Assembly (NCBI GenBank): GCA_964369525.1
Contig: CAYJEW010000002.1
Coordinates: 1,815 to 65,814, forward strand
From: an uncultured Oscillospiraceae bacterium
GTDB taxonomy: Bacteria > Bacillota > Clostridia > Oscillospirales > Ruminococcaceae
Length of the DNA stretch: 64,000 nucleotides
Direction of reading: 5' to 3'
The position numbers and the translations under genes are program-made. Below the pieces are notes generated by a model. The model made no database searches and was not told where the DNA came from. It was given only the letters and a program-made list of their open reading frames with translations. This document shows, in pieces, positions 12,944 through 59,476 of this stretch (the stretch's first letter is position 1; every line of letters starts with the position of its first letter).

Positions 12944-14827
12944 TTGTTAAAGGATAATAAACACACAACAAAAGAACAGAATGCGCTTACGTTTATATTT
13001 AGTAATGCAGGCGGCAAAAAGATATGGATGTTACTGGCGGTGTTGGCGGCGGCGGTTAGCATATCGGCAAGCTATATGGGCCCGCAGGTTATACGCTTTA
13101 CGGTGGACAGCATTATAGGCGAAGATACGGCCTCGCTACCGCAGTATGCGCTAAATATAATAGAAGCGCTGGGCGGCAGAGAGGTGCTGAGGGCTAATAT
13201 TATGTGGTGTGCCGGCGGGGTAATGGCCTTTGCGGGTATTGCGGCTATTTTTAACTTTTTGTCGCGCACCTCGATGAGCATTGGTACCGAGAGGTTCTGC
13301 AAGGCACTGCGCCAGCGGCTGTTTAGCCATGTGCAGTATCTGCCGTTTAAGTGGCAGGTGGAAAACCAAACAGGCGATATTATTCAGCGATGCACGTCCG
13401 ACCTTGATGTGGTGCGCGATTTTATGGCCAACCAGTTTTTAGAGGTGTTGCGCACCGTTATACTAATATGTGTTGCGCTAACACTTATGTTTAGCATGAA
13501 CCTACAGCTGGCGCTAGTGGCTTTTGCATTTATACCTATCATAGGCACATACTCTATTATTTTTTACAGGCTGGTAGGCAAACGCTTTTTGGCGGCAGAC
13601 GAGGCCGAGGGCGAGCTGACGGTAAACGTGCAGGAAAACCTAACAGGGGTTAGGGTTGTGCGTGCGTTTGGGCGCGAGCGCAACGAGCTGGCACGTTTTG
13701 ATGCGAACAATAACTTTTTTGCCAACCTTTGGCTAAAGCTTGGGCACACGCTGTCTATATACTGGGGAATTGGCGATATTGCCACGGGTATGCAGATATT
13801 TTCGGTGGTGTTGGTGGGCGCTGTTTTTGCGGCAAACGACACCATTACGCTTGGGGAGTATCTTGTGTTTGTGGGCTACAACCAAAGCCTTGCTTGGCCT
13901 GTGCGCACGCTGGGCCGCACGCTTAGCGAGATGAGCAAAACGGGAGTTTCGGCCACACGCATACAGCAGGTGCTGGACGCAGAGCCGGAGCCAAGTGAGC
14001 CGCAGGCGCAGCAGCCAGAGCTAAATGGTGATATCCGTTTTGAGAATGTGACGTTTGCATACGAGCACCAGCCGGTGCTGAAGGATTTGTCTTTTACTAT
14101 AAAAAAAGGTAGCACATTTGGAATTTTGGGCGCTACAGGTAGCGGCAAAAGCACAATAACATATCTTTTAAACCGATTGTATGACCTGCCAAGCGGTTTT
14201 GGCAATATATGGTATGGCGACACCGAAATTAGGCAGATAGACCGATATTATCTGAGGCGCAACGTGGGGCTGGTGCTACAAGAGCCGTTTTTGTTTTCTA
14301 AATCAATAGAGGAAAATATTGCGATAACCGATGACGACGATCGCCTTGACCACCCGCGTATCCGTAGGGCGGCAGGCGTTGCGGCGGTGGACGAGGCTAT
14401 AAACGATTTTGCACAAGGCTACGAAACGGTGGTGGGCGAGCGAGGGGTTACGCTATCGGGTGGGCAGAAACAGCGAGTGGCCATTGCACGCACGCTTATG
14501 CTTAAAGCGCCCGTGATGGTGTTTGACGACAGCATGAGCGCTGTAGACCTTGAAACCGACGCAAAAATACGCGCGGCACTGCGCACAGACACCCAGAGCG
14601 CTACTGTTATTTTAATTAGCCATCGCATAAATACGCTGATGGCAGCAGACACCATTATGGTGCTGGAGGACGGCAGGCTGGCAGACATAGGCACACATGC
14701 CGAGCTGATAGCACGGGAGGGTTTGTATAAGCGTATTTATGATATGCAAAGCGAAGCGGCCGAGGCAGGCACTGGCATGCCGCAGCAGCCAGCGGCTGAC
14801 CAGCCCGAAGGGGGTGTGGCGAGATGA
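12944..14827 (+). CDS. ABC exporter, fused permease/ATPase, degenerate-site subunit
   Basis: Walker A is GATGSGKST and the signature is LSGGQKQR. Walker B is VMVFDDS, with Asp replacing the catalytic Glu. The start is TTG; an alternative ATG lies downstream at MLLAVL. Confidence 0.88.
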   Translation: MLKDNKHTTKEQNALTFIFSNAGGKKIWMLLAVLAAAVSISASYMGPQVIRFTVDSIIGEDTASLPQYALNIIEALGGREVLRANIMWCAGGVMAFAGIAAIFNFLSRTSMSIGTERFCKALRQRLFSHVQYLPFKWQVENQTGDIIQRCTSDLDVVRDFMANQFLEVLRTVILICVALTLMFSMNLQLALVAFAFIPIIGTYSIIFYRLVGKRFLAADEAEGELTVNVQENLTGVRVVRAFGRERNELARFDANNNFFANLWLKLGHTLSIYWGIGDIATGMQIFSVVLVGAVFAANDTITLGEYLVFVGYNQSLAWPVRTLGRTLSEMSKTGVSATRIQQVLDAEPEPSEPQAQQPELNGDIRFENVTFAYEHQPVLKDLSFTIKKGSTFGILGATGSGKSTITYLLNRLYDLPSGFGNIWYGDTEIRQIDRYYLRRNVGLVLQEPFLFSKSIEENIAITDDDDRLDHPRIRRAAGVAAVDEAINDFAQGYETVVGERGVTLSGGQKQRVAIARTLMLKAPVMVFDDSMSAVDLETDAKIRAALRTDTQSATVILISHRINTLMAADTIMVLEDGRLADIGTHAELIAREGLYKRIYDMQSEAAEAGTGMPQQPAADQPEGGVAR

Positions 14828-16632
14828 CCGAGAAAACATTTAAAAACAAAAACTTTTCGCTGAAAATGTGGAAAAAAATGACCCCCTACATTCTTCCGCA
14901 TAAAAAAAATCTAATTGCGGTTATACTGCTTATGATACTACTGGCGGCTATAGACGCCGTGATACCGCTATTTTTGCGGGCGGCCGTGGATAGGTTTATA
15001 ATACCGCAAACCACAGAGGGGCTGCTGCCATATGGGCTTTTGTATGGAGGGGTTATTGTGTTGCAGGGGTTTGCCGTTGCAGTAATGGGGCGGCAGGCAA
15101 TGTATGTGGAGATGAACCTGGGTAAAGACTTAAAGCGGGCGGCGTTTTCGCACCTGCAAACGCTGGGCCTTAGCTACTACAACCAAAACGCAGTGGGCTG
15201 GATTTTGGCCCGCGTGATGAGCGATACAAACCACATATCGGGTGCGGTGGCGTGGATTTTTACCGATCTATTCTGGAGCGGCTTTTATGTAATAATTGTA
15301 ATGGGCGTTATGCTGGCGCTAGACTGGCGCCTGGCGCTGGTGGTGTTGGCGATAGTGCCTGTGGTGGCGCTGTTCACGTTTGTGTTTCAGGGTAGGTTTT
15401 TGAACGCAAACAGGCGTATGCGCCATGCGGTTAGCCGCATTACAGCAGCGTATAACGAGGGAATTACCGGAGCAAAAACCAGCAAAACGCTTGTAATAGA
15501 AGAGCGCAACAATCAAGACTTCTCACAGCTTACAGGCAAGCTGTATAAGGCGGCCAGGCGGTCGTCGCGGCTGTCGGCAAGTTTTATCTCGGTTATTGCA
15601 TTTTTCTCATCCTTTGCGGTGGCTATGGTGCTGGCGCAGGGGGGGATATTGTCGATGGAAAATGCGCTGGCGTTTGGTACGTTTTCGGCATTTATCAGCT
15701 ACGCCACAGGCATTATTGAGCCGGTGCAACAGATAGCACGCCTGATGACAGAGTTTATTGCAACCCAGGCAAACATTGAAAGGGTAGACAACCTTTTGAA
15801 CGAGCCGCCGGGCATTGTGGACGAGCCTGACGTTGTGGAAAAATACGGCGACACATTTAACCCAAAAACCGAAAACTGGGAGAAGATACACGGCGATATA
15901 GAGTTTAAGAATGTGTGGTTTAAATACCCAGACGGCGAGCAGTGGATACTGGAAGATTTTAGCCTGAAGATTCCTGCGGGGGCAAATGTGGCGCTGGTAG
16001 GCGAAACCGGCGCAGGCAAGAGCACGCTTGTGAATCTGGTGAGCAGGTTTTACGAGCCAACCGAGGGGCAGGTGCTTATAGACGGGGTGGGCGCGCGCCG
16101 CCGCAGTCAGCTATGGCTGCACAGCCAGCTTGGATATGTACTGCAAAATCCGCACCTGTTTTCCGGCACTGTTATGGAGAATATACGCTATGGGCGGCTG
16201 GACGCCACCGATGAAGAGGTGTACGAGGCGGCAAGGCTTGTTAGTGCCGATTTGGTTGTGGCAAAGCTTGAGAATGGATATGAAACAGAGGTGGGCGAGG
16301 GCGGAGACAGGCTTTCCACCGGGGAAAAACAGCTTATAAGCTTTGCGCGCGCAGTGCTTGCAAACCCGCCGATATTTGTGCTGGACGAGGCTACCAGCAG
16401 CATAGATACCGAAACAGAACAGCTTATTCAAAATGCAATATCGCATATACTGGAGGGACGCACCAGCTTTTTGGTGGCACATCGTCTTTCTACCATTCGG
16501 CATGCAGACATTATACTGGTGGTGCGTGACGGGCGCATTATAGAACGTGGTAGCCACAGCGAGCTTATGGCGCAAAAAGGATACTATTATGAGCTGTATA
16601 GGGCAATGCGCATAGAGGAAAGCGCGGGGTAG
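14824..16632 (+). CDS. ABC exporter, fused permease/ATPase, consensus-site subunit
   Basis: Its start overlaps the upstream stop as ATGA. Walker A is GETGAGKST and Walker B is IFVLDEATS. The signature is degenerate (LSTGEKQ). Confidence 0.9.
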   Translation: MTEKTFKNKNFSLKMWKKMTPYILPHKKNLIAVILLMILLAAIDAVIPLFLRAAVDRFIIPQTTEGLLPYGLLYGGVIVLQGFAVAVMGRQAMYVEMNLGKDLKRAAFSHLQTLGLSYYNQNAVGWILARVMSDTNHISGAVAWIFTDLFWSGFYVIIVMGVMLALDWRLALVVLAIVPVVALFTFVFQGRFLNANRRMRHAVSRITAAYNEGITGAKTSKTLVIEERNNQDFSQLTGKLYKAARRSSRLSASFISVIAFFSSFAVAMVLAQGGILSMENALAFGTFSAFISYATGIIEPVQQIARLMTEFIATQANIERVDNLLNEPPGIVDEPDVVEKYGDTFNPKTENWEKIHGDIEFKNVWFKYPDGEQWILEDFSLKIPAGANVALVGETGAGKSTLVNLVSRFYEPTEGQVLIDGVGARRRSQLWLHSQLGYVLQNPHLFSGTVMENIRYGRLDATDEEVYEAARLVSADLVVAKLENGYETEVGEGGDRLSTGEKQLISFARAVLANPPIFVLDEATSSIDTETEQLIQNAISHILEGRTSFLVAHRLSTIRHADIILVVRDGRIIERGSHSELMAQKGYYYELYRAMRIEESAG

Positions 16633-16723
16633 ACCATGGGCTGAAATTGTGAATATACTTTTAATAATTTACAAGTAAAGTTCGCTTTATCGCACATGTG
16701 ATGCAAAATATGCGCTAAATCGG

Positions 16724-16752
16724 TTTACAAAATCAATAATTTAGGGTAAAAT
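16724..16752 (+). promoter_or_regulatory. promoter for the DUF3048 lipoprotein gene
   Basis: The elements are TTTACA, a 17-nt spacer, and TAAAAT. Confidence 0.5.
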
Positions 16753-16835
16753 GTGCAATTGAGGTTTGAAAAAATATCCATGCATGGTAGAGCCTTGGCA
16801 TGGATAAATGCAACAATATAAGGGGTTACTACAAC

Positions 16836-18011
16836 ATGAAAAAAATGATAAGCCTTTTGCTGGTTACTATTATTGTATTTAGTTTTGCGGCCTGCAGTCA
16901 GCCGGCAGAGTCTGCGGGAACAAGCGCGTCTATGCCTGCACAAAGCGGCAGCGGCTCGGAGGCAATTCCCGAGCCTGAGGTGCTGAACCAAGCTTTCCTA
17001 ACAGGTCTTTCTAAAGGGGCAGACTATCCCGAGGGCCAGCGTATTGCAGCCGTAATGGTGAATAATATTGCCCAAAGCCGCCCAACACGCGGCCTTTCGG
17101 AAGCGCAGATACTGGTGGAGATTAAGGTAGAGGGCGGTATAACCCGCTTTATGGCTATATATGAAGACTACACAGAGATACCTATGGTAGGCTCTATGCG
17201 TTCGGCGCGCGACCAGTTCTTCCAGCTATTACTACCATTCTGGGGCTTTTACATGCACGAAGGCCCTGCCGGCGAAAGCCCTGTGAACTGGCTAATTCGT
17301 GACTATGACTACGAAGAGTTTGACATCCAGCCGGACGACGGCGACCTACGCTTCCAAGACCCTGCACGCGCAGGCTGGTCTTCGGAGTTCACATGGTATA
17401 CCGATGCAGAGCACATTATGGATACCATTGCAACAAAAGGCTCGGACGACTACCGCTCCTACGGTAGCCCGATATTCAACTTTGTGCCCTATACCGAGCC
17501 TGCACGTGTGCCTGAAGATGGCGAAGCGGCTGAGGTTGCTGTAATTCACTCGGCAAGCTACATTAGCCATTTTTCGTACAACGAGAGCACAAGCAAGTAC
17601 GACATGAGCCAGTTTAACTCCTACTACGGCGGCGTGGACGCAACAATTGACGAGAACAACGGCGACCAGCTGGCGTTTGACAATGTGATAGTGCTTTTTG
17701 CCCCAATGACACTTTGGCCCGACTCGCAGCTGGTAAAGGTGGACTACTCGGTAGGTGGCGCAGGCTACTATATATCGCAAGGCCAATATGAGCTGATTTT
17801 CTGGCGTAAAGGTGCTGAGAACCATCCGCTAATACTGGAAAGAGCCGACCGCAGTGGCGAGCAGGTGCTGGTAAACCCCGGCACAACCTATCTTGCAATT
17901 GTGGACGATGAAGAGCTTGGTAGCTTTGATGCACATCTACAGGCAGGTACAGCAGGCGAAGCCGCAGAGGGTGGCGAGGTAAACCAAGACGAGGTAGAAA
18001 CCGAAGAGTAA
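16836..18011 (+). CDS. DUF3048 domain-containing lipoprotein
   Basis: The N-terminus MKKMISLLLVTIIVFSFAAC carries a lipobox. The DUF3048 core reads AVMVNNIAQSRPTRGLSEAQILVEIKVEGGITRFMAIYED. The C-terminal tail is acidic. Confidence 0.8.
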   Translation: MKKMISLLLVTIIVFSFAACSQPAESAGTSASMPAQSGSGSEAIPEPEVLNQAFLTGLSKGADYPEGQRIAAVMVNNIAQSRPTRGLSEAQILVEIKVEGGITRFMAIYEDYTEIPMVGSMRSARDQFFQLLLPFWGFYMHEGPAGESPVNWLIRDYDYEEFDIQPDDGDLRFQDPARAGWSSEFTWYTDAEHIMDTIATKGSDDYRSYGSPIFNFVPYTEPARVPEDGEAAEVAVIHSASYISHFSYNESTSKYDMSQFNSYYGGVDATIDENNGDQLAFDNVIVLFAPMTLWPDSQLVKVDYSVGGAGYYISQGQYELIFWRKGAENHPLILERADRSGEQVLVNPGTTYLAIVDDEELGSFDAHLQAGTAGEAAEGGEVNQDEVETEE

Positions 18012-18125
18012 AAACGGCGCTACGGGTATTTAATTAAAGTTATATGCCTGTGGGCAGGATAAATTAAACTGGGCGGCAGCGTTGTTTTACGGCGGTGCCG
18101 CCTAGCTAAATTTTGGAGAGTGCAG

Positions 18126-19241
18126 ATGCAGAAAAAATATGGGTTTTTAGCGCTTGTACTGGCGGCGGTATTGCTGCTGGCGGCGTGCTCGTTTGATAGC
18201 GAAAGTAGCACAGTGCAGTCGTCGATGGCGCAGAGTGGCACGGCGGGCTCGGCCGCTGCAAGCAGTACCCCACAGCAAGAGGCGGGCGTAAGCGTGCTAA
18301 CAGGCCTTCCGCTACCCGAGAGTATGCAGTATGCCGCAAGGCCTGTGGCAATAATGATAGACAACAACGTTAGGGCCACGCCACAGCGTGGGGTGGCGTA
18401 TGCTGATGTTGTGGTGGAGATGGCTGTGGCCGACGGCACCACCCTTATGATGGCAATGTTTACAGACCTTACATCTTTTCCGCATATTGGGCCTGTGAGC
18501 GAGATAGAAGACCAGTTTTTGCAGATAGCATTGCCACTGTATGCCATACCGGTGTTTATAAACGGCTCTAACTACGCCTACAACCTTTTGGGTGCGGCAG
18601 GCGGCTATAAGGTTATAGACGGAATGCAGCTGGGCACAACCTCTTTTTGGTTTGACGAGGCACGCACCCAGCCTATGCCAGACGGTTATCTGCATGAATA
18701 TTGCTGGTTTACCGATGCGGCGCTTATGTGGAACGGTATGGTAGCTTTGGATGTGCACCAGTCGGGCTACCCTATTGTGCCGATGTTTAACTTTGCGCAA
18801 ACATCGCACCCGCAAAGCAGTGATGCGCACAAGATTAGTGTTGTATACAGCGAGCTTACAGCCGCAAACCTAACCTACAGAGCAGATGACGAAACCTACC
18901 TTTTGGTGAACAGCAACCGCACAGCCGATGAAGACGGCAGCGAAAAGCGCTACACAAATGTGTTACTGCTGGCGGCAAACATTGCGCCAAAGGCAGACAA
19001 TGCAGATTATCTTGAGTATGATTTTTCGGGCGGCACAGGCTATTACTTTACAGGCGGCGGTGTAACCGAGGTGCGCTGGGAGAAGGGCAGTGTGGAAAAC
19101 CCGCTTAGGATATACGATATAGAAAGCGGCGAGGAGCTACAGCTGAATACAGGCAAAAGCTATGTGGGTATCTATTCGGCGCAGCGTGAAGGCGCTGTGA
19201 GCTGGCAGAGCGCGCAGCAGCTGGCAGAGGCTGCGGCATAG
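18126..19241 (+). CDS. DUF3048 domain-containing lipoprotein (paralogue)
   Basis: The N-terminus MQKKYGFLALVLAAVLLLAAC carries a lipobox. The core reads AIMIDNNVRATPQRGVAYADVVVEMAVADGTTLMMAMFTD. A GGAGAG RBS precedes the ATG at 18126. Confidence 0.8.
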   Translation: MQKKYGFLALVLAAVLLLAACSFDSESSTVQSSMAQSGTAGSAAASSTPQQEAGVSVLTGLPLPESMQYAARPVAIMIDNNVRATPQRGVAYADVVVEMAVADGTTLMMAMFTDLTSFPHIGPVSEIEDQFLQIALPLYAIPVFINGSNYAYNLLGAAGGYKVIDGMQLGTTSFWFDEARTQPMPDGYLHEYCWFTDAALMWNGMVALDVHQSGYPIVPMFNFAQTSHPQSSDAHKISVVYSELTAANLTYRADDETYLLVNSNRTADEDGSEKRYTNVLLLAANIAPKADNADYLEYDFSGGTGYYFTGGGVTEVRWEKGSVENPLRIYDIESGEELQLNTGKSYVGIYSAQREGAVSWQSAQQLAEAAA

Positions 19242-19261
19242 AAATATAAACTATAAAATAA

Positions 19262-19305
19262 CCCCCTTTTGGTGCTAACCGCTAACGCCAAAGGGGTTTT
19301 ATTTT
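19262..19305 (+). terminator. terminator after the second DUF3048 gene
   Basis: The stem is CCCCTTTTGG / CCAAAGGGG with one bulge, followed by TTTTATTTT. Confidence 0.6.
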
Positions 19306-19313
19306 GCTAACCA

Positions 19314-19348
19314 TAAAAAACACCGCTGCTAACTGCAGCGGTGTTTTA
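19314..19348 (-). terminator. terminator of the 1091-aa gene
   Basis: The stem is CACCGCTGC / GCAGCGGTG. A T-run follows on the minus strand (A6 on the plus strand at 19315..19320). Confidence 0.7.
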
Positions 19349-19359
19349 ACGTTGAGTGG

Positions 19360-22300
19360 TTAATATTTGTGGGCCAGCGGCAACACGCTTATTAAAGCTG
19401 TCCAGCCAAGCTGGTAGAGCAGCGCCACCATGATTGACAGCCCCGAAAGCCCGCCGCTGAACGCCAGCAGCAGCGCAAGCCCACAGCCTAAAACAGCCGA
19501 GGCAATTTGAACAATGTTGCTCATGCGTTCGCTGTTTGCGCCGCTGGCGGCGGCGCGCATGCCGCCAATAAAACTGGCAAATGTGCCCATGTGGGTCATT
19601 ACGCCGTCGCTTTCGGGCAGGTACTCGGTGAGCGGCTGCATAATGTCTAGCTCGCGCGGGCCAAGCACCTTTACAACGCCTTGGGGTAGGTCGTATGCCT
19701 GCTCTATAAGCTCGGAGGTTATGTTCATGTCGTCGCTGTTAACAATCAGCGAAACGCCGCTTTTTACAAGACTTTCAAGTGTTTGTGCTACGTTGGCATC
19801 GCTGTTGTAGCCTACAATAAACAGGGCAAAAAGTTTGCCGCTAACCGCAAGGTAAACGGGGTAGTGCTGTTTTGGCACAAGCTTCATCTCAAGTTCTATC
19901 GGCGGCGGCTCTATGTCGTGGCGGCGAAGCATGTCGCGGTTGCCTATAACCACGCGGTTGTTTTGCACCCATGCGGTGAAACCGCGGCCAGGCTCGGTGG
20001 TAAGGCTTTCTACCTTATAAAGCATATCGTTTTTGCCCTGCACCACGTCTATAAATATATCTCGCAATGTGTCGCACCCTGAGGTAAGCACGCTGGCCGC
20101 GTACAGAATGGCAAGGTCGATGCGCTCTTTTTCAAAGGTTTTGATGCCTTTTAGGTATACAGAAGAGGCGGGGAAGATGTCGCGCGAGTTAGCCATTACA
20201 ACATTTACATTGCCAAGGTCTTCTATGGCCGACCAGCCGGGTACAACAGCGCCAACACGCTCTGTGCCACGCTGCATTAGGTAGCTTGGAATGCCTGAAA
20301 CCAGTGAGGATGTGAGCGGTGTGGCTAGGCACAGTGTGGCTGTGGCGGCCGACAGCGCAACCAAAAGGTCTTGCGAGAATATCCAGCCCACAGCGCCTGT
20401 ACCCAGCGCTAGTATAAGTAGCGCCCAGCCAACCACTCGTGCGCGTCTGTCGGTGGCACGCTGGGAGAAGCTTTGGCGCAAAAAGCCTTTTACAAGTGCG
20501 GTGGGGCGGCTGAGAAGCAGCGTTGGGTATGGCTCGTTTAGGCCTTTTGTGATGTTGAACGCAAGCTCTGTGCTGTTATCTATTATGTAAGCGGCAGAGT
20601 GGTCCATGCCTGCGCTGGCCAGGCGGAAGTTGTTTAGAATAGACACAGCCCGCACCCGTTTGCCAAAAGCGTTGAAGGCAAGCGTTAGCGCTACCACACT
20701 GCCAAATAGGGTAATAGGCTCGCGTATAGGCAGCACCGACAGCGTTTGCGCTAGTAGCATTACCGCCTGCAATAGGGCAAACAGCGAGGCTAAAGCTGGC
20801 GGAGAATCTACCGTGGGCTCGGCCACAAGGCCCACAAGGCCTGTGGCAACGGTGGTGAAGTTGATAATAATAGCCAGCAACACCAGCGCAAGGTATACTG
20901 CGCAAAATGGTATTGGGTTTAGGGCAAATTGTAGTATAACAGGCAAGGTAATTATGTTTGCAAAGCCAAGGCTTAGCCACATAAGCACAGCCGATATAAC
21001 AAGCGTTGCAACCGTGCGGCGTGTAAGGGTTGTGCGCAGAGAGGCGATGTCTTCTGCTATAGCTTCGGCGTCTTGGGGATGGTTGTAGTCTTCAAAATCG
21101 CCTGTGTCCAGCTCGAGATTTTCATGCTCTGCGCGCTCGGCCTGTTCGGCCTGCTCTGCCAGCTTGGCAAACTCGCCTGTGAGTATGGCAGAACGTGACT
21201 TTTTGCGCTTGCGTTTGCCACGGCCAATAGGCTTTGGCTCTTCGGGGGTTACTATCATGGCTTCCTGGAAGAAATCTCGGAAGCGGTCGTCCACCATTTC
21301 GTCAACAAACAGTGTTTTGGCGGCTTCGCCCGCAGGGGCATCGCCCGACTCAAACTCCTGAGTATAAGCAGCTGTGGGTACACGGCATGCAGCGCCTTGT
21401 TCGTCTAAATCAAACGAGCGTGTGTCGTGCGAGGGCTCGTCATCCTGCGGCGCAAAAGGTGTGGCGGCAGGCTGTGCCGCATTGCCTTCTATGGCAGAGA
21501 ATATAGCGTTTGCCTGCTGCGACATAACGGCAGGCGGCGGCTCGTCGCTGAAAGCGGCAGATATTTGTTGTTCGCTAACGGCGTCGAATGACATGGTGGA
21601 GGTATTAAGATTGTCTATGGCCTCAAACTGCATGGTAGTGCCGGGTTTTGGCCGTGGGGGAGCAGCCGCTGTACCCAAAAAGCTATTCGTGGGTTCTGCG
21701 GTAGCGGCAAAAGAAGAAACATTTATGTCGGTTAGTGTTTCTGCCTCGTTAAACAGGTTTGGTTGCGGCGCTGCCGAGGGCTCTTCATATTGTGGCTCTT
21801 GCTCTTCGGGCTGCGCAAAAAACCCAGTATTTTGCTGCTCGTAGTGATCCGCTGCGTACTCTTTGGTGTACTCCTCTGTATATTCTTCGGCGTATTCCTC
21901 TACCTCGTAAGGAGCAGCTTGTTCCGCCTCGAACAGCGAGTAATCGTCCTCGTCTTCATCAATGTATATGCCTAGCTTCTTTTCTTCTTTTATACGCCGT
22001 TTTTCGGCCTTAAGCTCGGCTGCTTGGCGCTTGCGTTCTTCCTTGTCGGCCTTTTTTTGCTCGCGGCGGCTTAGCGTAGGCTCGCTTTCGCCGGAAAACC
22101 AGCTTAGCAGCTCGGCCTCGCGGCTAAACTTTTCTTTGTCCACCTTGTCAAATGCAGCAGCCTTGCCAACCCTGGGGATAGAGGTGGTTTGGCCAACCTC
22201 AATATCCCATATAGTGGCATCGGGTTTCGGCGATTTTTTGGGGGTGGGTGATGGCGTGGCTGCGGCGCGCTGCACAGGCTTGGCAGGCGGCTCAGCTTTG

Positions 22301-22635
22301 GCAGGTGGTGGTGGAGTGGGCGCTGCCGTAGGTGGGGGTGTGGCGCGCGCTTGTTCGGCCTGCGGTGTGGGTGCAGGCGGTTTGGCGGGCGCCATGGCTT
22401 GCGCAGCTTGCTGCGGCTGTGGCGGTTTAGGGGTGGGGCGCGGCGGCATGGTGGGAACGCCGGGCTGATTTTTGCCTAGCCCCATCTCGGCAAGAATGTC
22501 GTCTACCGATTGTGCAGAGCTGCCTGAAGCAGGCTTGCTTTTAAGCTCCTGTAAAATATTATCCACTGCGGCGCGATTTTGATTTTTGCTGTCCAATTGT
22601 GTCATCTCCATACTTGGTTTGCACAAACGGTGCAA
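19360..22635 (-). CDS. large membrane protein: disordered N-terminal half plus catalytically degenerate P1B-type P-type-ATPase-like core
   Basis: The ORF is 1091 aa. Residues ~1-540 are low-complexity (Pro-rich, KE-rich, EEY repeats). Residues ~541-1091 are colinear with heavy-metal ATPases but read VVMANSRDIF where FDKTGTLT is expected, and the TGES, TGD and GDGxND motifs are also lacking. The start codon is uncertain (TTG 22635, ATG 22611 or ATG 22605). Confidence 0.75.
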   Translation of the reverse strand: MHRLCKPSMEMTQLDSKNQNRAAVDNILQELKSKPASGSSAQSVDDILAEMGLGKNQPGVPTMPPRPTPKPPQPQQAAQAMAPAKPPAPTPQAEQARATPPPTAAPTPPPPAKAEPPAKPVQRAAATPSPTPKKSPKPDATIWDIEVGQTTSIPRVGKAAAFDKVDKEKFSREAELLSWFSGESEPTLSRREQKKADKEERKRQAAELKAEKRRIKEEKKLGIYIDEDEDDYSLFEAEQAAPYEVEEYAEEYTEEYTKEYAADHYEQQNTGFFAQPEEQEPQYEEPSAAPQPNLFNEAETLTDINVSSFAATAEPTNSFLGTAAAPPRPKPGTTMQFEAIDNLNTSTMSFDAVSEQQISAAFSDEPPPAVMSQQANAIFSAIEGNAAQPAATPFAPQDDEPSHDTRSFDLDEQGAACRVPTAAYTQEFESGDAPAGEAAKTLFVDEMVDDRFRDFFQEAMIVTPEEPKPIGRGKRKRKKSRSAILTGEFAKLAEQAEQAERAEHENLELDTGDFEDYNHPQDAEAIAEDIASLRTTLTRRTVATLVISAVLMWLSLGFANIITLPVILQFALNPIPFCAVYLALVLLAIIINFTTVATGLVGLVAEPTVDSPPALASLFALLQAVMLLAQTLSVLPIREPITLFGSVVALTLAFNAFGKRVRAVSILNNFRLASAGMDHSAAYIIDNSTELAFNITKGLNEPYPTLLLSRPTALVKGFLRQSFSQRATDRRARVVGWALLILALGTGAVGWIFSQDLLVALSAATATLCLATPLTSSLVSGIPSYLMQRGTERVGAVVPGWSAIEDLGNVNVVMANSRDIFPASSVYLKGIKTFEKERIDLAILYAASVLTSGCDTLRDIFIDVVQGKNDMLYKVESLTTEPGRGFTAWVQNNRVVIGNRDMLRRHDIEPPPIELEMKLVPKQHYPVYLAVSGKLFALFIVGYNSDANVAQTLESLVKSGVSLIVNSDDMNITSELIEQAYDLPQGVVKVLGPRELDIMQPLTEYLPESDGVMTHMGTFASFIGGMRAAASGANSERMSNIVQIASAVLGCGLALLLAFSGGLSGLSIMVALLYQLGWTALISVLPLAHKY

Positions 22636-22765
22636 ACCGCGAATTTTGCTGTAGCTATCGGATAGGGGCTGCTTTTATGTGGTATAATAAACAAGGTAGG
22701 TTTTTACTCTTTAAAGAGTATGCCACCACAAATACCGTATATTAGTGCGCTTTTTGGGGCGTGGT

Positions 22766-23515
22766 TTATCCTTGGCGGGTTAGGTGAACATGGTGCATTA
22801 AAATGCTGCCGGCTACCGAAACATTAAAACTGTTTACGCCGCCGGAGGTGACCATTGGCAGCGAGATAGCGCCGTCGCACAGTTTGTAAATAAGAGGGCT
22901 TACGCCACGCCCCTCGCTACCTACTACCAGCCCTAAAGGCCCCGAGAGGTCTTGCTTTTGCAGCGGGGTGCCTTGCATGTCGGCGCAGTATATAAAGATG
23001 TTGTCTTTTTTAAGCTTACGTATCGCCTCGCCCAAATTTGCTACACGGGCAATGGGTAGCAGAGCGGCGGCGCCTGCGCTGGATTTTATGACAGCAGGGC
23101 TAACCCATGCCGAGCCACGCTTTGGAATTATAGCGCCATGTACGCCACAAAGCATTGCCGAGCGCAGCAGCGCACCAAGGTTGTGTGGGTCTTCCACACC
23201 GTCGGCCAGCAGTATGAAAGGCGGCTCGTTTTTAGCCTTGGCTATGGCAATAATGTCGTCAGGCGAGCAGTATTCTATCTCGGCCGCAAATGCGGCAACA
23301 CCTTGGTGCTGAGGGCCGCACAGCGTAGCCAGCTTTTGCGCAGGCACGTGTTTTACCACAGCGCCTGCATTTTTGGCAAGCGCTGTAAAGTAAGCGGCAG
23401 ACTTTGGCTGTAGTCCTTCGGCCAGCATAACGGTGTTTACTGCGGCGCCGCTTTGCAGTAGTGCTTCCACGGCGTTGCGCCCGTATACGGGAGGGGTTGT
23501 TTGTTGTGTATCCAT
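22766..23515 (-). CDS. rlmB: 23S rRNA (guanosine-2'-O)-methyltransferase, SpoU/TrmH family
   Basis: An N-terminal substrate-binding domain (YGRNAVEALL) is followed by SpoU motifs (DGVEDPHNLGALLRSA, LVVGSEGRGVS, IPMVTSGGVNSFNVSVAGSI). Confidence 0.85.
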   Translation of the reverse strand: MDTQQTTPPVYGRNAVEALLQSGAAVNTVMLAEGLQPKSAAYFTALAKNAGAVVKHVPAQKLATLCGPQHQGVAAFAAEIEYCSPDDIIAIAKAKNEPPFILLADGVEDPHNLGALLRSAMLCGVHGAIIPKRGSAWVSPAVIKSSAGAAALLPIARVANLGEAIRKLKKDNIFIYCADMQGTPLQKQDLSGPLGLVVGSEGRGVSPLIYKLCDGAISLPMVTSGGVNSFNVSVAGSILMHHVHLTRQG

Positions 23516-23826
23516 TTGCCTCCAAAATAATTAAGTGTAAGGCGGATGCGAAAGCTCTAATAACACTATTGGTTGCGGTAAAAAGCATATGTACCCCAAT
23601 ATGCAGTTATTATATCAAAGTTTTGCCTGTATTACCACCCACATACAAAAAAACATGAAAAAGTAGGTACAATGATATGCGGTGAATATGCTACAGATTG
23701 CAAATACTGCAAAACAGTGGCTGTATAAGCAGATTTATACAGAATGTAAATAGCGTAGAGGGCAGGCAGGATGTTGAAAAGTCGGTTGAAAGTGTTAAGA
23801 AGTGGCATTATCTGCGGTATTATCGG

Positions 23827-23881
23827 TGTGGAAAACTAGATTTAGGGAGGGTTTTCCACAAGAAGTTTAAAGCTTTCCACA
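23827..23881. promoter_or_regulatory. cluster of three DnaA-box-like 9-mers
   Basis: The three sites are TGTGGAAAA (23827..23835, reverse complement TTTTCCACA), TTTTCCACA (23852..23860) and CTTTCCACA (23873..23881). The consensus is TTATCCACA. Confidence 0.4.
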
Positions 23882-24010
23882 AAACAAGGTGTTTAAACAG
23901 GGTAATAAAAGGGGAATATGTATAGAAAATGAAGGGCAATAAGGGTGTATATTTCTCTGAATGTGACAAATATAAATATTTTGCAGCGTATTGTACGGAG
24001 ATGAAATTGA

Positions 24011-24865
24011 ATGGGAAATGGTGAAAACATGGCGGTATTTGCACAAAACGCTTTTGAAACATCGGCGAGAGGTATGAACCTTGAAGCCACATTGTTTTGC
24101 GGGCAGAGCTTTAGCTGGCAGCATGATAGCGGTAGCTATATTGGAATGGTGGAGGATATGGCGGTAAAGCTAAGCCAAGAAGGGGATATTCTACGCATAC
24201 AAAACATAAGCGGGCAGCCACTAACAGCGCAGCAAAAGGAGTATTGGCTACGGTATTTTACACTTGATATCGACTACAATGCGCTTCATAATGCATTTGC
24301 ACAAAACAAGCAGCTGGCGGCGTGTGTTGGGTACGAGCCGGGAATTCGTATGCTACGCCAGCCGTTTTTTGAAACGCTGATATGCTTTATAATAAGCCAA
24401 AACAATAATATTCCGCGTATAAACGGTATTGTACAGCGGCTACGAGAGGGCTTTGGCACAAATGTGGCCGAGGGGGTGTATGCCTTTCCACAGGCCCGGC
24501 AGCTGGCGCAGCTGGAGGTAGAGCAGCTACAGCCGCTGCGCGCGGGCTTTAGGGCAAAATACATACTGGACGCGGCGCGTAGGGTGGCAGACGGGCGGCT
24601 ACAGCATAGCCAGCTAACACAGCTGCCCACAGAAGAGGCACGCAAGCAGCTTTTAGAGATATACGGCGTGGGGCAAAAGGTGGCAGACTGTGTGCTGTTG
24701 TTTGGCTTGCAACGCTGGGAGGTATCGCCGATGGATGTGTGGATGCGCAGAGCCATGCAGCAGCTGTTTGAGCAAGGAATGCCCGAATGCGCCAAAGGCT
24801 ATGAAGGTGTGGCACAGCAGTATATATTCCACTATGCACGCACCGAGAAGCTGGTGGAGGGATAA
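24011..24865 (+). CDS. ogg: 8-oxoguanine DNA glycosylase / DNA lyase (bacterial Ogg, HhH-GPD)
   Basis: The N-terminal sequence ATLFCGQSFSWQ and the HhH-GPD motif IYGVGQKVADCVLLFG ... PMDVW are present. An alternative start lies at 24029. Confidence 0.8.
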   Translation: MGNGENMAVFAQNAFETSARGMNLEATLFCGQSFSWQHDSGSYIGMVEDMAVKLSQEGDILRIQNISGQPLTAQQKEYWLRYFTLDIDYNALHNAFAQNKQLAACVGYEPGIRMLRQPFFETLICFIISQNNNIPRINGIVQRLREGFGTNVAEGVYAFPQARQLAQLEVEQLQPLRAGFRAKYILDAARRVADGRLQHSQLTQLPTEEARKQLLEIYGVGQKVADCVLLFGLQRWEVSPMDVWMRRAMQQLFEQGMPECAKGYEGVAQQYIFHYARTEKLVEG

Positions 24866-26307: not shown

Positions 26308-28386
26308 ATGAGCCATACACCTGACAAAATTCGCAACATTATGATAGCGGGCCACTCCGGTGCGGGAAAAACAACACTGGCAGAGGCGCTGCTGTTTTAC
26401 AGCAAGGCCATAGACCGATTTGGACGTGTGGACGATGGCAACGCCACAATGGATTTTGACCCGGAAGAAAATAAACGCGGCGTGTCGCTTAGCGCGGCTT
26501 TGGCGTCTATAGAGTACGACACCGCGAGGATTAACCTGGTGGATGTGCCCGGGCTGTTTGATTTTGAGCTGGGCTTATACGAAGGTATTATGGCGGTAGA
26601 GGGCGTTTTGGTGTGTGTAGAGGCGCGCGGCGGCCTGCCTGTGGGCGCACAAAAAGCGTATAAACTGGCTAAAAACAACGGCAAGAGCACCATGTTCTAC
26701 GTGAGCAAGCTGGACGTGGAAAACGCCGATTTTTACAAGGTATACGAAGAGATGAAGGCAGAGTTTGGCACATCGCTTTGTCCTATTGTTGTGCCGCATG
26801 TGGAGGGAGACAAGATTACATTTGTGAATCTTATCTCCGAAAAAGCATTTGTGTACGATGATAACGGCCAGGCCACACAGGTAGATAGGCCAGACCTTGG
26901 CGCGCTGTATGACGAGCTGCGCAACGCTATGTTTGAAGCTGTTGCCGAAACAGACGACGCGCTAATGGAAAAGTTTTTCGCAGGAGAGCCCTTTACTATA
27001 GATGAGCTTACAGATGGCCTGCGCACAGGCACAAAAACAGGCGCTGTGTCGCCCGTGCTGTGTGGTGTATCTACCAGTATGGCGGCGTGTGATATGCTAC
27101 TGTTTAACATAAAAGCCTTAATGCCCAGCGCCCAAAGGGGTGGTGGCATGCAGGCAGAGGCCGACGGCAAAGAGGTTATTATAGAATGCGACCCAAGCGG
27201 AGATTTGGCAGCGTATGTGTTTAAAACCGTGGCCGACCCGTTTGTGGGCAAGCTGTCGTATGTGAAGGTGGTTCGCGGTGTGCTTAAGCCCGACTCGGCA
27301 CTGGTAAACAGCCGCACAGGTGAGGCTGAAAAGATGGGCAAGCTTTTGTTTGTGAAGGGTAAAAAACAAATAGATACTACCGAGATTTCAGCGGGTGATA
27401 TGGGCGCTGTTACAAAATTGCAAAATGCGAAAACAGGCGATACATTGTGCAAACCCGGTAGCGTTGCGGCAGTGAAAAAGGTGCCGTTCCCCGGTGCTAC
27501 ATATAGTATGGCACTGCGCACCACCAAAAAAGGCGACGAGAGTAAGATATCTACAGCTATGCAACGCATGCTGGAAGAAGACCGCACGCTTGCATATAAA
27601 GTAGACTCTGAAACGCTGCAGCAGGTTATCAGCGGCCTTGGCGAGCAGCACCTTGATGTGGTTATAGCAAAAATGAAGAGCAAGTTTGGCGTGGAGGTGG
27701 AGCTGTCGCAACCAAGGGTTGCATACCGCGAAACACTGCGCAAAAAGGTTAAAAAGCAAGGCCGCCACAAAAAGCAAACAGGTGGCCACGGGCAGTTTGG
27801 CGATGTTATTATGGAGTTTGAGCCAAACGACTCGGACGAGCTGGTATTTGAAGAGAAAATCTTTGGCGGCAGTGTGCCGAAAAACTTCCATCCTGCTGTT
27901 GAAAAAGGCCTGCGCGAGGCCGCACAGCGCGGTGTGTTGGCAGGCTACCCGGTTGTGGGCCTGAAAGCTACACTGCTAGACGGTAGTTATCATGCGGTAG
28001 ACTCATCTGAAATGGCGTTTAAAATGGCGGCAAAGGTTGCATATAAATCGGCACTGCCCGAGGCAGGCCCTGTGCTACTGGAGCCCATTGGCGCGCTGAA
28101 GGCGTATGTGCCGGACTCGAACACAGGCGATATTATGGGTGAAACCAACAAGCGCCGCGGGCGTGTTATGGGCATGAACCCGGCAGGCGACGGCCTACAG
28201 GTGGTGGAAGCCGAGATACCTGTGAGCGAGATGCACGACTTTACCACATACATGCGCCAGCTTACCCAAGGCCGCGGGCATTACGAGTTTGAGTTTGTAA
28301 GGTACGAGCCGTTGCCACAGCAGCTCGAGGCCAAGGTTATTGAAGATGCTAAGAAAATATTTGTGGATAAAGACGAAGACGAATAG
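26308..28386 (+). CDS. fusA: elongation factor G family GTPase (located outside a str operon; may be a paralogue)
   Basis: The G1 motif is AGHSGAGKTT and G3 is VDVPG. The 692-aa length fits the five-domain EF-G layout. No rpsL, rpsG or tuf genes lie nearby. Confidence 0.85.
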   Translation: MSHTPDKIRNIMIAGHSGAGKTTLAEALLFYSKAIDRFGRVDDGNATMDFDPEENKRGVSLSAALASIEYDTARINLVDVPGLFDFELGLYEGIMAVEGVLVCVEARGGLPVGAQKAYKLAKNNGKSTMFYVSKLDVENADFYKVYEEMKAEFGTSLCPIVVPHVEGDKITFVNLISEKAFVYDDNGQATQVDRPDLGALYDELRNAMFEAVAETDDALMEKFFAGEPFTIDELTDGLRTGTKTGAVSPVLCGVSTSMAACDMLLFNIKALMPSAQRGGGMQAEADGKEVIIECDPSGDLAAYVFKTVADPFVGKLSYVKVVRGVLKPDSALVNSRTGEAEKMGKLLFVKGKKQIDTTEISAGDMGAVTKLQNAKTGDTLCKPGSVAAVKKVPFPGATYSMALRTTKKGDESKISTAMQRMLEEDRTLAYKVDSETLQQVISGLGEQHLDVVIAKMKSKFGVEVELSQPRVAYRETLRKKVKKQGRHKKQTGGHGQFGDVIMEFEPNDSDELVFEEKIFGGSVPKNFHPAVEKGLREAAQRGVLAGYPVVGLKATLLDGSYHAVDSSEMAFKMAAKVAYKSALPEAGPVLLEPIGALKAYVPDSNTGDIMGETNKRRGRVMGMNPAGDGLQVVEAEIPVSEMHDFTTYMRQLTQGRGHYEFEFVRYEPLPQQLEAKVIEDAKKIFVDKDEDE

Positions 28387-28425
28387 GCAAAATACGGCGG
28401 AAATTGGCAGTGTGCCTATATTTTG

Positions 28426-28454
28426 GTTGACATGCGGTGCTATTTGTAATATAA
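28426..28454 (+). promoter_or_regulatory. consensus sigma-A promoter for greA
   Basis: The elements are TTGACA, a 17-nt spacer, and TATAAT, both hexamers perfect. Confidence 0.7.
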
Positions 28455-28573
28455 TAGCCTAAGTTATGTGCGGCAAAAAAAGATGCGATGTATCGAATTT
28501 TTGCCGGCAAGCTTTAAAGAAAGTACATTGCGGCATGCCGCAGTAATATTTATGTCGAAGGAGCGGGTATTAA

Positions 28574-29068
28574 ATGGCTAATCCGCAAAAAAAAGAGGTT
28601 AAAGTAACCCGTGCGGGGCTTATAAAGCTAGAGGATGAGCTGAACCATCTTAAAACAGAGCGCCGAAAAGATGTGGCCGACAAGATAAAGGTGGCTCGTG
28701 GATATGGCGATTTATCGGAAAATAGCGAGTATGATGAAGCTAAAAACGAGCAAGGCATTGTGGAGAGCCGCATTGCCGAGCTGGAAACCATGCTAAAGCA
28801 TATTCATGTAATTGACGAGGATGAGCTAACAAACGAGCATGTAATGGTGGGCAGCCATGTGAAGCTGCGCGACAGCGACGGCGACACAGACGAGTATGAC
28901 ATTGTGGGATCTACCGAGGCAGACCCTGCCGCAGGGAAAATTAGCGACGAGTCGCCTGTGGGTGCGGCGCTGATAAACCACGGTGCAGGTGATACGGTAG
29001 AGGTTACGTTGCCGTCGGGCGTGGTGGTGGCATACACCATTGTAGAGATTACAAAGTCGGACATTTAG
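28574..29068 (+). CDS. greA: transcription elongation factor GreA
   Basis: The coiled-coil N-terminal domain carries the acidic tip GDLSENSEYDEAK, and a C-terminal FKBP-like domain follows. The protein is 164 aa. Confidence 0.93.
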   Translation: MANPQKKEVKVTRAGLIKLEDELNHLKTERRKDVADKIKVARGYGDLSENSEYDEAKNEQGIVESRIAELETMLKHIHVIDEDELTNEHVMVGSHVKLRDSDGDTDEYDIVGSTEADPAAGKISDESPVGAALINHGAGDTVEVTLPSGVVVAYTIVEITKSDI

Positions 29069-58828: not shown

Positions 58829-59476
58829 TTGAGAACTACAAAGCAGCCGCAAGAGCGGCGGGCAGAGCTTATAGCGGCGGCGCGTACCCTTTTTGACAAA
58901 AAAGGTGTAACAAAAACCCGCGTTTCTGATATTGTTAAAGAGGTAGGGGTGGCACAGGGGGTTTTTTACTACTACTTTTCGTCTAAAGATGAAATGGTGC
59001 AGCAGGTTGTGGATATTGTTGGGCTGGAGGTAAGCAGTAAGGCTAACGATATACTGCAAGAGGATATCCCATACGGGCAGAAGATGGCAAAATTTATAGA
59101 GCTGTTTCTTGATTTGCTGGATAAGTTTTTGGGCGATGACGAATCCAGCCTAAACTCGCTACATCTTATAGAGAGCACACAGGGCGAGGGCCAGGGCAAC
59201 ATTACACTGCAGGTTATGCCAAGTTTTATAGATTGTTTTCACAGCCTTGTGTTGCAAGGGGTGGAGCAAAAGGAGATTACTGCCAGCCACCCATGGGACA
59301 GCGCGCAGGTTGTGCTATATGGTTTGCTGGAGTATGGGCGCATATGCCTACCACCACGCCATATGATTTATTCGGTTACCGAACAAAGCCTTGGAATGAG
59401 CAAAGGGTCTTTGGTAAAATATGTGAAGAGAAAAAATACAGAGCGAAAAAGGGAGCATGCAGATGAACGCGTATAG
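58829..59476 (+). CDS. TetR/AcrR-family transcriptional regulator
   Basis: The HTH reads LFDKKGVTKTRVSDIVKEVGVAQGVFYYYFSSKDEM. An AGGAGGG RBS precedes the TTG start. Confidence 0.88.
   Translation: MRTTKQPQERRAELIAAARTLFDKKGVTKTRVSDIVKEVGVAQGVFYYYFSSKDEMVQQVVDIVGLEVSSKANDILQEDIPYGQKMAKFIELFLDLLDKFLGDDESSLNSLHLIESTQGEGQGNITLQVMPSFIDCFHSLVLQGVEQKEITASHPWDSAQVVLYGLLEYGRICLPPRHMIYSVTEQSLGMSKGSLVKYVKRKNTERKREHADERV

Follow-up and report, generated by a model that had tools for sequence, protein, structure and literature searches.

P-type ATPases are defined by the phosphorylation motif DKTGT, and their turnover requires the Asp of this motif, the Glu of TGES and the acidic residues of GDGxND. Without these residues the Post-Albers cycle cannot run, and an Asp-to-Asn substitution at the phosphorylation site renders the enzyme catalytically dead. 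DKTGT is present in 99.77% of recognised P-type ATPases, the exceptions being point mutants only (PMC3896382). Next to such single-residue variants, the known exceptions are the degenerate half of the mycobacterial proteins CtpH and CtpI, and the disputed eukaryotic TMEM94, which according to cryo-electron microscopy runs no phosphorylation cycle, does not bind Mg2+ and has a helix-breaking Pro motif in M4 (PMC12134183), while another group holds it to be an active Mg2+ ATPase (PMC13322241). Here we describe a gene from a 64,000-nt stretch of DNA of an uncultured Oscillospiraceae bacterium (contig CAYJEW010000002.1; hereafter the window, to which all positions refer). This pseudo-P1B-ATPase gene, called gene X in the following, lies on the minus strand, most likely at 19360..22596, and its product is made up of a 551-aa body, homologous to P1B ATPases, and of a disordered N-terminal half in front of it. 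Residue numbers such as 276, 279 and 429 are those of the model of this body, unless the full-length form is named, and all features of gene X given below are on the minus strand.

The pump-like body and its motifs

An initial annotation of the window had described the body as a heavy-metal pump scaffold with every catalytic motif replaced, and the P-type relationship was borne out by profile as well as structure searches. Using phmmer against the sequences of the PDB, the gene X protein matches Legionella CopA (LpCopA, 3rfu) at E=6.7e-10, which improves to E=1.3e-12 with a profile of 94 family members. Among the NCBIfam models, CopA (PRK10671) is matched at E=1.4e-10, but with 40 bits against a cutoff of 1316, and TIGR01525 is likewise sub-threshold with 25 bits against 346; no NCBIfam model reaches its own cutoff for this protein. 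In Pfam, neither the whole protein nor the 551-aa body matches any family at E<=10, DUFs included, and this holds for E1-E2_ATPase and Hydrolase as well. The AlphaFold2 (AF2) model of the body has a predicted local distance difference test (pLDDT) score of 91.8 and a predicted TM-score (pTM) of 0.82, and with this model Foldseek matched only P-type pumps, P1B pumps first and then KdpB, Pma1 and P2 pumps. The P1B matches are CopA (4bbj, E=8e-20), ATP7B, ZntA, CadA and HMA4, where those to CopA, ATP7B and ZntA span E=8e-20 to 1e-12 with TM-scores of 0.5-0.63. The helix order of the model is that of P1B pumps, i.e. MA, a kinked MB, M1, M2, a beta mini-domain, M3, M4, the P domain (for phosphorylation) and the N domain (for nucleotide binding), M5 and M6, as the initial annotation had proposed, including its shortened actuator-like loop without TGES. 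As such, the model has the eight transmembrane (TM) helices and the actuator (A), P and N domains of the P-type fold, with a Rossmann-like P domain into which the N domain is inserted, and with the A domain present as a stub of ~53 aa only. The gene X protein is related to P1B pumps, though distantly. Because five testable defining features fail, we do not file it as a P-type ATPase.

The open reading frame (ORF) and the four peptide strings that had been quoted from it are present where they were reported. Following the body from its N-terminal end, the TM helices MA, MB, M1 and M2 (20617..21015; model helices 2-18, 34-51/53-62, 71-92 and 105-133) come first, with MB kinked at a conserved G..G, G59 conserved at 96% and Q83 at 90%. 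Then follows a vestigial actuator domain without TGES (20458..20616), which in the model is a two-strand mini-domain (residues 134-186) of ~53 aa, compared to the usual ~115; there is no TGE anywhere in this A-like region. We considered GLNEPYP (consensus GLGEPEP), whose Glu is invariant in the core set, as a surviving TGE, and rejected it since this Glu is not conserved in branches at ~30% identity. Within M3 and M4 (20254..20457), the CPC position is occupied by T-P-L (20314..20322), in which the Pro is kept and both Cys are lost, and this replaces the register 'C...LATP' that had been suggested as the CPC equivalent. In the profile alignment to LpCopA, P233 falls on the CPC proline, and column counts give A, G, S, T or V at 232, P at 233 (92-100%), and L or F at 234. 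A (C/S/T)P(C/H) metal site is therefore not found in M4, its Pro being retained and its flanking residues replaced.

The phosphorylation loop reads VVMANSRDIFP (20170..20202), in agreement within one codon with the loss of the phosphorylated Asp reported earlier for codons 20173..20202. HMMER alignments place an Asn (20188..20190) at the phospho-Asp position, followed by the [DE]-L-F-P signature of the family. This nucleophile column is residue 276, the final residue of strand beta1 in the model; in the branch to which the window belongs it is occupied by G, N, E, S or T, and KTGT has become (A/S)-(R/K)-(D/E)-L. The N-domain homologue (19801..20136) is the most conserved part of the protein. 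Here SEHPL has changed into SGCDTL, so that its Glu and His are replaced by Cys and Asp, at positions that are variable in divergent branches, and the GxG (GRG) and the IGN following it are retained, with G345 and G358 of this domain conserved at 98-99%. In the second half of the P domain (19582..19800), TGD is changed to SDD (19729..19737) and GDGxND to SDGVMTH. The Asp of SDD is invariant in the 94-sequence set and conserved at 97% in the wider clade discussed below, where S or T is common at the Thr position and the Gly is lost, which leaves a partial relic of TGD. For GDGxND the core family has S-(E/D)-G-x-M-T-H, while divergent branches show nothing recognisable. The body ends with M5 and M6 (19363..19581; model helices 479-520 and 528-548), which carry a conserved Y-Q..W with W538 conserved at 94%. 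In terms of bits per column, the N domain reaches 2.85 compared to 1.9-2.4 for the TM helices. Conservation peaks at 2.8 in the N domain plus the first half of the P domain, against an approximate 2.1 for the TM helices, which are the least conserved folded part.

Judged by sequence, the protein has lost all residues that it would need to transfer a phosphoryl group, to bind Mg2+, to be dephosphorylated and to coordinate a metal, while structural residues survive. The claim that every catalytic motif had been replaced therefore stands in substance, and is slightly overstated in that the TGD Asp, the CPC Pro and the GxG of the N domain are kept. For comparison, the intact Ca-type P-type ATPase reported elsewhere in the window (59457..62129) is real and passes all of its Pfam models, so that true pumps of this genome have a normal appearance.

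Family size, variation and selection

In a search library of 1.84 billion representatives at 50% identity, the gene X protein reaches E<=1e-10 with at least 1850 50%-identity clusters and E<=1e-30 with 983 of them. True pumps reach only ~40 bits against the gene X query, estimated as ~E 1e-5 at this library size, and matches at E<=1e-10 are therefore members of the family rather than pumps. The family is distributed across Oscillospirales, and named carriers are Anaerofilum, Pygmaiobacter, Allofournierella, Gemmiger, Subdoligranulum, Faecalibacterium, Ruthenibacterium, Caproiciproducens, Caproicibacter and 'Clostridium' minihomine. Homologues with intact motifs were looked for and not found. 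DKTGT occurs in none of the 256 proteins first collected and in none of 63 further proteins (P0287-P0349), obtained in a step-out search that was seeded with a member at ~31% identity; in all, DKTGT is absent from 349 family proteins. GDGxND is absent by pattern from the same 63, and elsewhere in the clade the columns aligned with it have degenerated.

For 14 closely related pairs, the ratio of non-synonymous to synonymous substitution (omega; Nei-Gojobori, NG86) is 0.02-0.14 in the body and 0.09-0.32 in the N-terminal half. By this measure of sequence evolution the body is under strong purifying selection and the gene is maintained. Together with the family-wide loss of motifs, this agrees with the earlier proposal of a maintained pseudo-enzyme instead of a decaying gene: homology to an enzyme family is combined with a loss of catalytic residues that is conserved across orthologues, and purifying selection is found as well.

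A wider-clade alignment of 189 representatives reveals how far this loss extends. In 86 of them (46%) the nucleophile column does hold an Asp, which is never followed by KTGT. All of these members are in the divergent half, at 25-42% identity to the query, where the context is h-h-h-D-A-(K/R)-(D/E)-L-F-P; the remotest branch reads TDTDLFP at this loop. KTGT, GDGxND, CPC and TGES are found in no branch of the wider clade. Since the branch of the window has replaced the Asp, yet the rest of the protein stays strongly constrained, the conserved function evidently does not need the nucleophile, and from the alignment we read the Asp of the divergent half as a relic. What survives clade-wide is a signature composed of [DE]-L-F-P after the dead loop, HGIKTFE+ERID.AI at the hinge between the P and N domains, D429 and W538, and furthermore G345, G358, P371, E376, Y388-L389, G393, F399 and Y403.

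Public labels of the members are inconsistent. Some read 'hypothetical protein'; among the others (P0303, P0309, P0318, P0351) are 'HAD family hydrolase' and 'Copper-transporting P-type ATPase' as well as 'Signal peptidase I / Na+/H+ antiporter MnhB' and 'cell envelope biogenesis protein OmpA'. Those other than hypothetical look like over-annotations from weak or low-complexity matches. Full-text literature searches returned no published description of the family.

Tether, gene ends and operon partner

The 551-aa body is preceded by a long cytoplasmic N-terminal half, in which two short helices stand out from an otherwise disordered region. Motif 1, VDNILQEL (22543..22566; consensus VD[DE]ILExL), is a predicted helix with a pLDDT of ~70, and motif 2, VDDILAEMGL (22477..22506; consensus VD[DE]ILAxLG[LF]), follows ~20 residues further on as a predicted helix with a pLDDT of ~63. 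At least one copy of the VD(D/E)IL motif is found at residues ~7-15 of almost every member, including branches at 25-30% identity, and it persists while the N-terminal extension varies between 139 and 940 aa in length (median 404). Among the other ORFs of the window and of 87 loci, the VD.IL motif returned only chance-like single matches. Downstream of motif 2 runs a disordered cytoplasmic linker (21136..22476), which is rich in Ala, Pro and Glu, has a net charge of -24, and for the greater part (residues 40-470 of the 1078-aa form) stays under a pLDDT of 50. Within this linker lies a second conserved short motif, DDRFRDFFQEAMIVTP (21244..21291; family consensus D.EF..FF[ST].SV.V.P), which in one subgroup is found near the N-terminus, within the first ~45 residues. 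Thereafter a conserved cytoplasmic helix with the pattern DY..P.DA..V..DL...R (21016..21087; model helix 507-545 of the 1078-aa form, pLDDT 77-94) continues into the first TM helix. No Pfam domain was found in the N-terminal half at E<=10, nor in that of the longest relatives (up to 1477 aa), and the same search found no heavy-metal-associated (HMA) domain or other metal-binding motif. Domain fusions were therefore dropped as a clue to function.

The linker also contains a highly charged single helix, RREQKKADKEERKRQAAELKAEKRRIKEEKK (21976..22068; helix 177-207 of the 1078-aa form, pLDDT 83-86). Its 31 residues alternate Lys/Arg with Glu, and it is not conserved family-wide. In the model it looks like a single stable alpha-helix used as a spacer.

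As for the ends of the gene, the uninterrupted ORF 19360..22635 yields the 1091 aa reported initially if the most upstream TTG is used, with further in-frame starts at 22605 and 22611. A GGAG at 22606..22609 is located 9 nt upstream of the TTG at 22596, and with this start the VD.IL motif begins at residue 11, the position that nearly all relatives share. Because of this spacing and the family-typical distance to the motif, TTG 22596 is the more likely start as far as can be read from the sequence, giving the 1078-aa product that is also recorded in the protein library (P0121). At the other end, the gene indeed has the terminator ascribed to it: an intrinsic terminator of the operon (19317..19347, minus strand) with a 13-bp stem containing seven GC pairs, a 5-nt loop and a T-run, which begins 13 nt past the stop codon.

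Directly upstream, on the same strand, lies rlmB (22766..23515, minus strand), identified by the TIGR00186 equivalog with 188.5 bits against a cutoff of 160. The synteny with rlmB, which had been named as a point to check, turned out to be nearly universal: among the 77 loci with a complete 5' end, 75 have rlmB directly upstream of gene X on the same strand, with a median gap of 33 bp and with nine pairs overlapping by 4 bp. The adjacency is kept at ~30% identity (L083, L084), and also at 22-29% identity, where the wider neighbourhoods are unrelated and FtsH or NrdD is encoded upstream. In the window, no terminator-like site was seen on the minus strand between rlmB and gene X. The spacer between the two is unusually long here (130-169 bp compared to the family median of 33 bp), and it harbors a perfect 9-bp inverted repeat read from the sequence, GGTTTGCAC-CGTTT-GTGCAAACC (22616..22638, minus strand), just upstream of the ribosome-binding site of gene X. 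The TTG at 22635, with which the 1091-aa ORF begins, falls inside the stem of this repeat. The repeat may act as an operator, as a processing site or as a hairpin that stabilises the 5' end; an Rfam scan of 19000..24200 returned nothing above noise.

The neighbours of gene X in the window are housekeeping genes, i.e. rlmB, OGG, FBA, EF-G and GreA. In relatives, an EF-G paralogue and GreA are often located downstream of the gene X homologue. In the window and its nearest metagenome-assembled genomes (L003-L005, L007, L014), gene X is instead followed by two tandem, convergent DUF3048 lipoprotein paralogues (16800..18011 and 18120..19241) and, beyond these, by a heterodimeric ABC exporter pair (12944..16632), with EF-G (26308..28386, plus strand) and GreA (28574..29068) on the other side of rlmB, OGG and FBA. 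This placement (12944..19241 versus 26308..29068) is a lineage-specific rearrangement. The EF-G of the window scores 568 bits with TIGR00484, against a cutoff of 659, and 816 bits with NF009381, against a cutoff of 583; it is probably a second EF-G paralogue and not the fusA of the str operon, going by these scores.

In at least 18 relatives, including branches at ~30% identity, a small protein of 80-95 aa is encoded 150-400 bp upstream of rlmB on the same strand (L001:6796-7053, L083:4253-4537, L084:1626-1889 and 15 more). It has the pattern MKG[VI]N[KR][KR]V[IV]E[IV]...IE[RK]VLVFLKP...GLV.W[KR]R with a C-terminal TM helix, and matches no Pfam or NCBIfam family. In the window, no homologous ORF is detectable in 23516..24010. 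This small protein may be a third member of the operon or a partner of the gene X product.

Function and relation to known systems

Taking these data together, we propose, with a probability of about 0.6, that the product of gene X is a non-pumping membrane adaptor or scaffold, whose headpiece and tethered helices bind cytoplasmic partners, and whose expression is coupled to ribosome maturation. A descendant of P1B (copper-type) pumps would have kept its eight-helix membrane domain together with the P and N domains as a rigid fold, would no longer run the cycle of phosphorylation and dephosphorylation or bind a transported metal, and would have acquired a long, flexible cytoplasmic tether in the place of the HMA domains with which normal P1B pumps begin and bind metal. 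The most conserved surface, made up of the N domain and the P domain's first half, would then serve as a binding module for a partner or ligand, while the VD(D/E)ILxEL helices and the F..FF motif on the tether would capture one or more cytoplasmic partners and hold them at the membrane. For both the headpiece and the tether motifs it is this binding role that we infer. Expression would be coupled to that of the ribosome-maturation enzyme RlmB, and because of this presumed coupling the function is probably a housekeeping one, linked to growth. Of the scaffold, sensor or channel suggested initially, a scaffold or sensor is favoured over a channel, at the level of sequence conservation, since this is higher in the N and P domains than in the membrane helices. 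A role in sporulation was set aside, since Faecalibacterium, Gemmiger and Ruthenibacterium, which are non-sporulating, carry the gene.

Several points must be held against the adaptor proposal. No computation showed a partner being bound, and the full-length AF2 model gives no evidence that the N-terminal helices, with their pLDDT of 63-70, dock on the body. The ~46% of the wider clade that retains an Asp in the nucleophile column makes residual chemistry possible in those branches. Moreover, the universal [DE]279, D429 and the S/T at the TGD position remain, such that a remodelled site for a small ligand or metal at the former active site is possible, and the conserved mid-membrane Gln, Cys and Tyr-Gln pair could form a binding site. 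Lastly, the linkage to rlmB may reflect co-expression only; operon linkage of that kind is known from rlmE(ftsJ)-ftsH in proteobacteria.

As an alternative, the pump body could be a ligand sensor or a passive conduit, i.e. it would bind something and work as a switch or as a non-energised channel or facilitator. This reading partly overlaps with that of an adaptor, and we regard it as possible, if tentative. One candidate ligand is a nucleotide bound by the N domain, as the GxG of the nucleotide pocket and the Gly following it are conserved at 98-99%, and as TMEM94, which is P-type-like and lacks TGES, is reported to bind AMPPCP with micromolar affinity (PMC12134183); however, SEHPL has lost its Glu and His, and divergent branches do not conserve these positions. 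The ligand could also be a cation at the remodelled acidic cluster of the P domain, where [DE]279, D429 and S/T427 gather at the former active site, but where the acidic residues of motif IV that hold Mg2+ are absent. Alternatively, it could be a ligand in an M4 cavity opened by the helix-breaking Pro, which is kept in 92-100%; one turn above this Pro the core family has a conserved Cys, and Q83 and Y534-Q535 are conserved as well. Against such a membrane site stand the low conservation of the TM helices, the loss of both metal-binding Cys of CPC, and the lack of any metal-binding domain or motif in the Pfam search at E<=10.

A cryptic phosphotransferase or ATPase, working with non-canonical residues such as D/E279 or, in other branches, Asp276 or the DxD-like TDTD, could draw on the 86 of 189 representatives with an Asp in the nucleophile column, on the TDTDLFP of the remotest branch, and on S/T427, D429 and K/R449, which partly mirror HAD motifs II and III. 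Yet the protein of the window has an Asn in this column, and its whole branch has G, N, E, S or T, with omega still at 0.02-0.14; residue 279 is Asp in some members and Glu in others, a swap that is not tolerated in a nucleophile; KTGT, GDGxND and TGES are missing and the actuator domain is only a stub; and every curated P-type or HAD model fails, with no Pfam match at E<=10 and 25 bits against 346 for TIGR01525. Cryptic catalysis is thus unlikely for the branch of the window, and for the family at large we give it very little credence. That gene X is merely a strain-specific decayed pump gene, or resembles a pump by chance, would be suggested by the missing motifs themselves and by nothing else. 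It is contradicted by a 3.2-kb frame that is intact in the window and in hundreds of genomes, by the 1850 50%-identity clusters at E<=1e-10, by omega values far below 1, by a confident model (pLDDT 92) with P1B pumps as its best structural matches (E=8e-20), and by the conserved position in the operon, and is thereby excluded.

A bolder version of the adaptor proposal is that the pump body has become a membrane receptor or organiser whose tie to ribosome maturation and translation is a functional one, and not only transcriptional. Such a tie is suggested by RlmB being encoded upstream (75/77 loci) and an EF-G paralogue often downstream, and we consider it a speculative and rather unlikely extension. 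The VD(D/E)ILxEL and F..FF motifs would in that case tether RlmB, a translation factor or ribosomal particles to the membrane, or alternatively the protein would report membrane or ion status to the translation apparatus, and the small tail-anchored protein whose gene lies upstream of rlmB may, in some lineages, act together with it. If true, the P-type ATPase fold would have taken on a new role in the cell.

Whichever of these functions applies, a whole ancient clade has discarded the catalytic and metal-binding elements and most of the actuator, with the fold still strongly constrained, and has added a new, putative N-terminal interaction module and a near-fixed operon partner. The family is as such a natural experiment on what the P-type fold is capable of without its catalytic cycle. 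Its carriers include very abundant human gut commensals (Faecalibacterium, Gemmiger, Ruthenibacterium and Subdoligranulum), in which, given their medical relevance, it matters that gene X is a probable core gene, and that the present public labels of its members would mislead metal-resistance and metabolic inference.

How, then, does gene X compare to the systems already described? The best matches in both sequence and structure are P1B-1 pumps, namely CopA of L. pneumophila (3rfu/4bbj) and ATP7B, together with ZntA as a P1B-2 pump. With CopA-type pumps the gene X protein shares the helix order, the kinked MB with its conserved glycines, the helix-breaking Pro of M4, the Rossmann-like P domain, the inserted N domain with its GxG, and an N-terminal cytoplasmic extension. 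It differs from CopA in that identity is only ~15%, in having Asn for the phospho-Asp, in lacking KTGT, TGES, GDGxND, SEHPL and both Cys of CPC, in an actuator of ~53 instead of ~115 residues, and in a disordered tether of 139-940 aa with VD(D/E)ILxEL helices where CopA has HMA domains. Furthermore, it scores far below every curated family cutoff, and its gene is partnered with rlmB rather than with metal-homeostasis genes.

The N-terminal half of the mycobacterial CtpH and CtpI is, like the gene X protein, a bacterial P-type module that has kept its fold and in which the motifs are degenerate (PMC13460109). In CtpH and CtpI, however, this module is joined to a P2-type pump that is canonical and presumably active, whereas in gene X it stands alone and makes up the whole folded protein; gene X moreover has a large clade to itself and keeps a fixed partner in its operon, unlike CtpH and CtpI, a distinction that we draw from their descriptions. 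Fusions named 'FUPA24', in which function is kept in the C-terminal half only, were reportedly described by Chan et al. in 2010 and are said to be the counterpart of CtpH/CtpI. Human TMEM94 (ERMA) resembles the gene X protein in combining a P-type-like architecture with the absence of TGES. In contrast to gene X it is eukaryotic and P2-like, with ten TM helices and with a candidate phospho-Asp still in place (D417), and beyond the superfamily the two are not linked in evolution. Set against all of these, the gene X family looks like a previously undescribed, stand-alone and clade-wide pseudo-enzyme branch of the P1B lineage.

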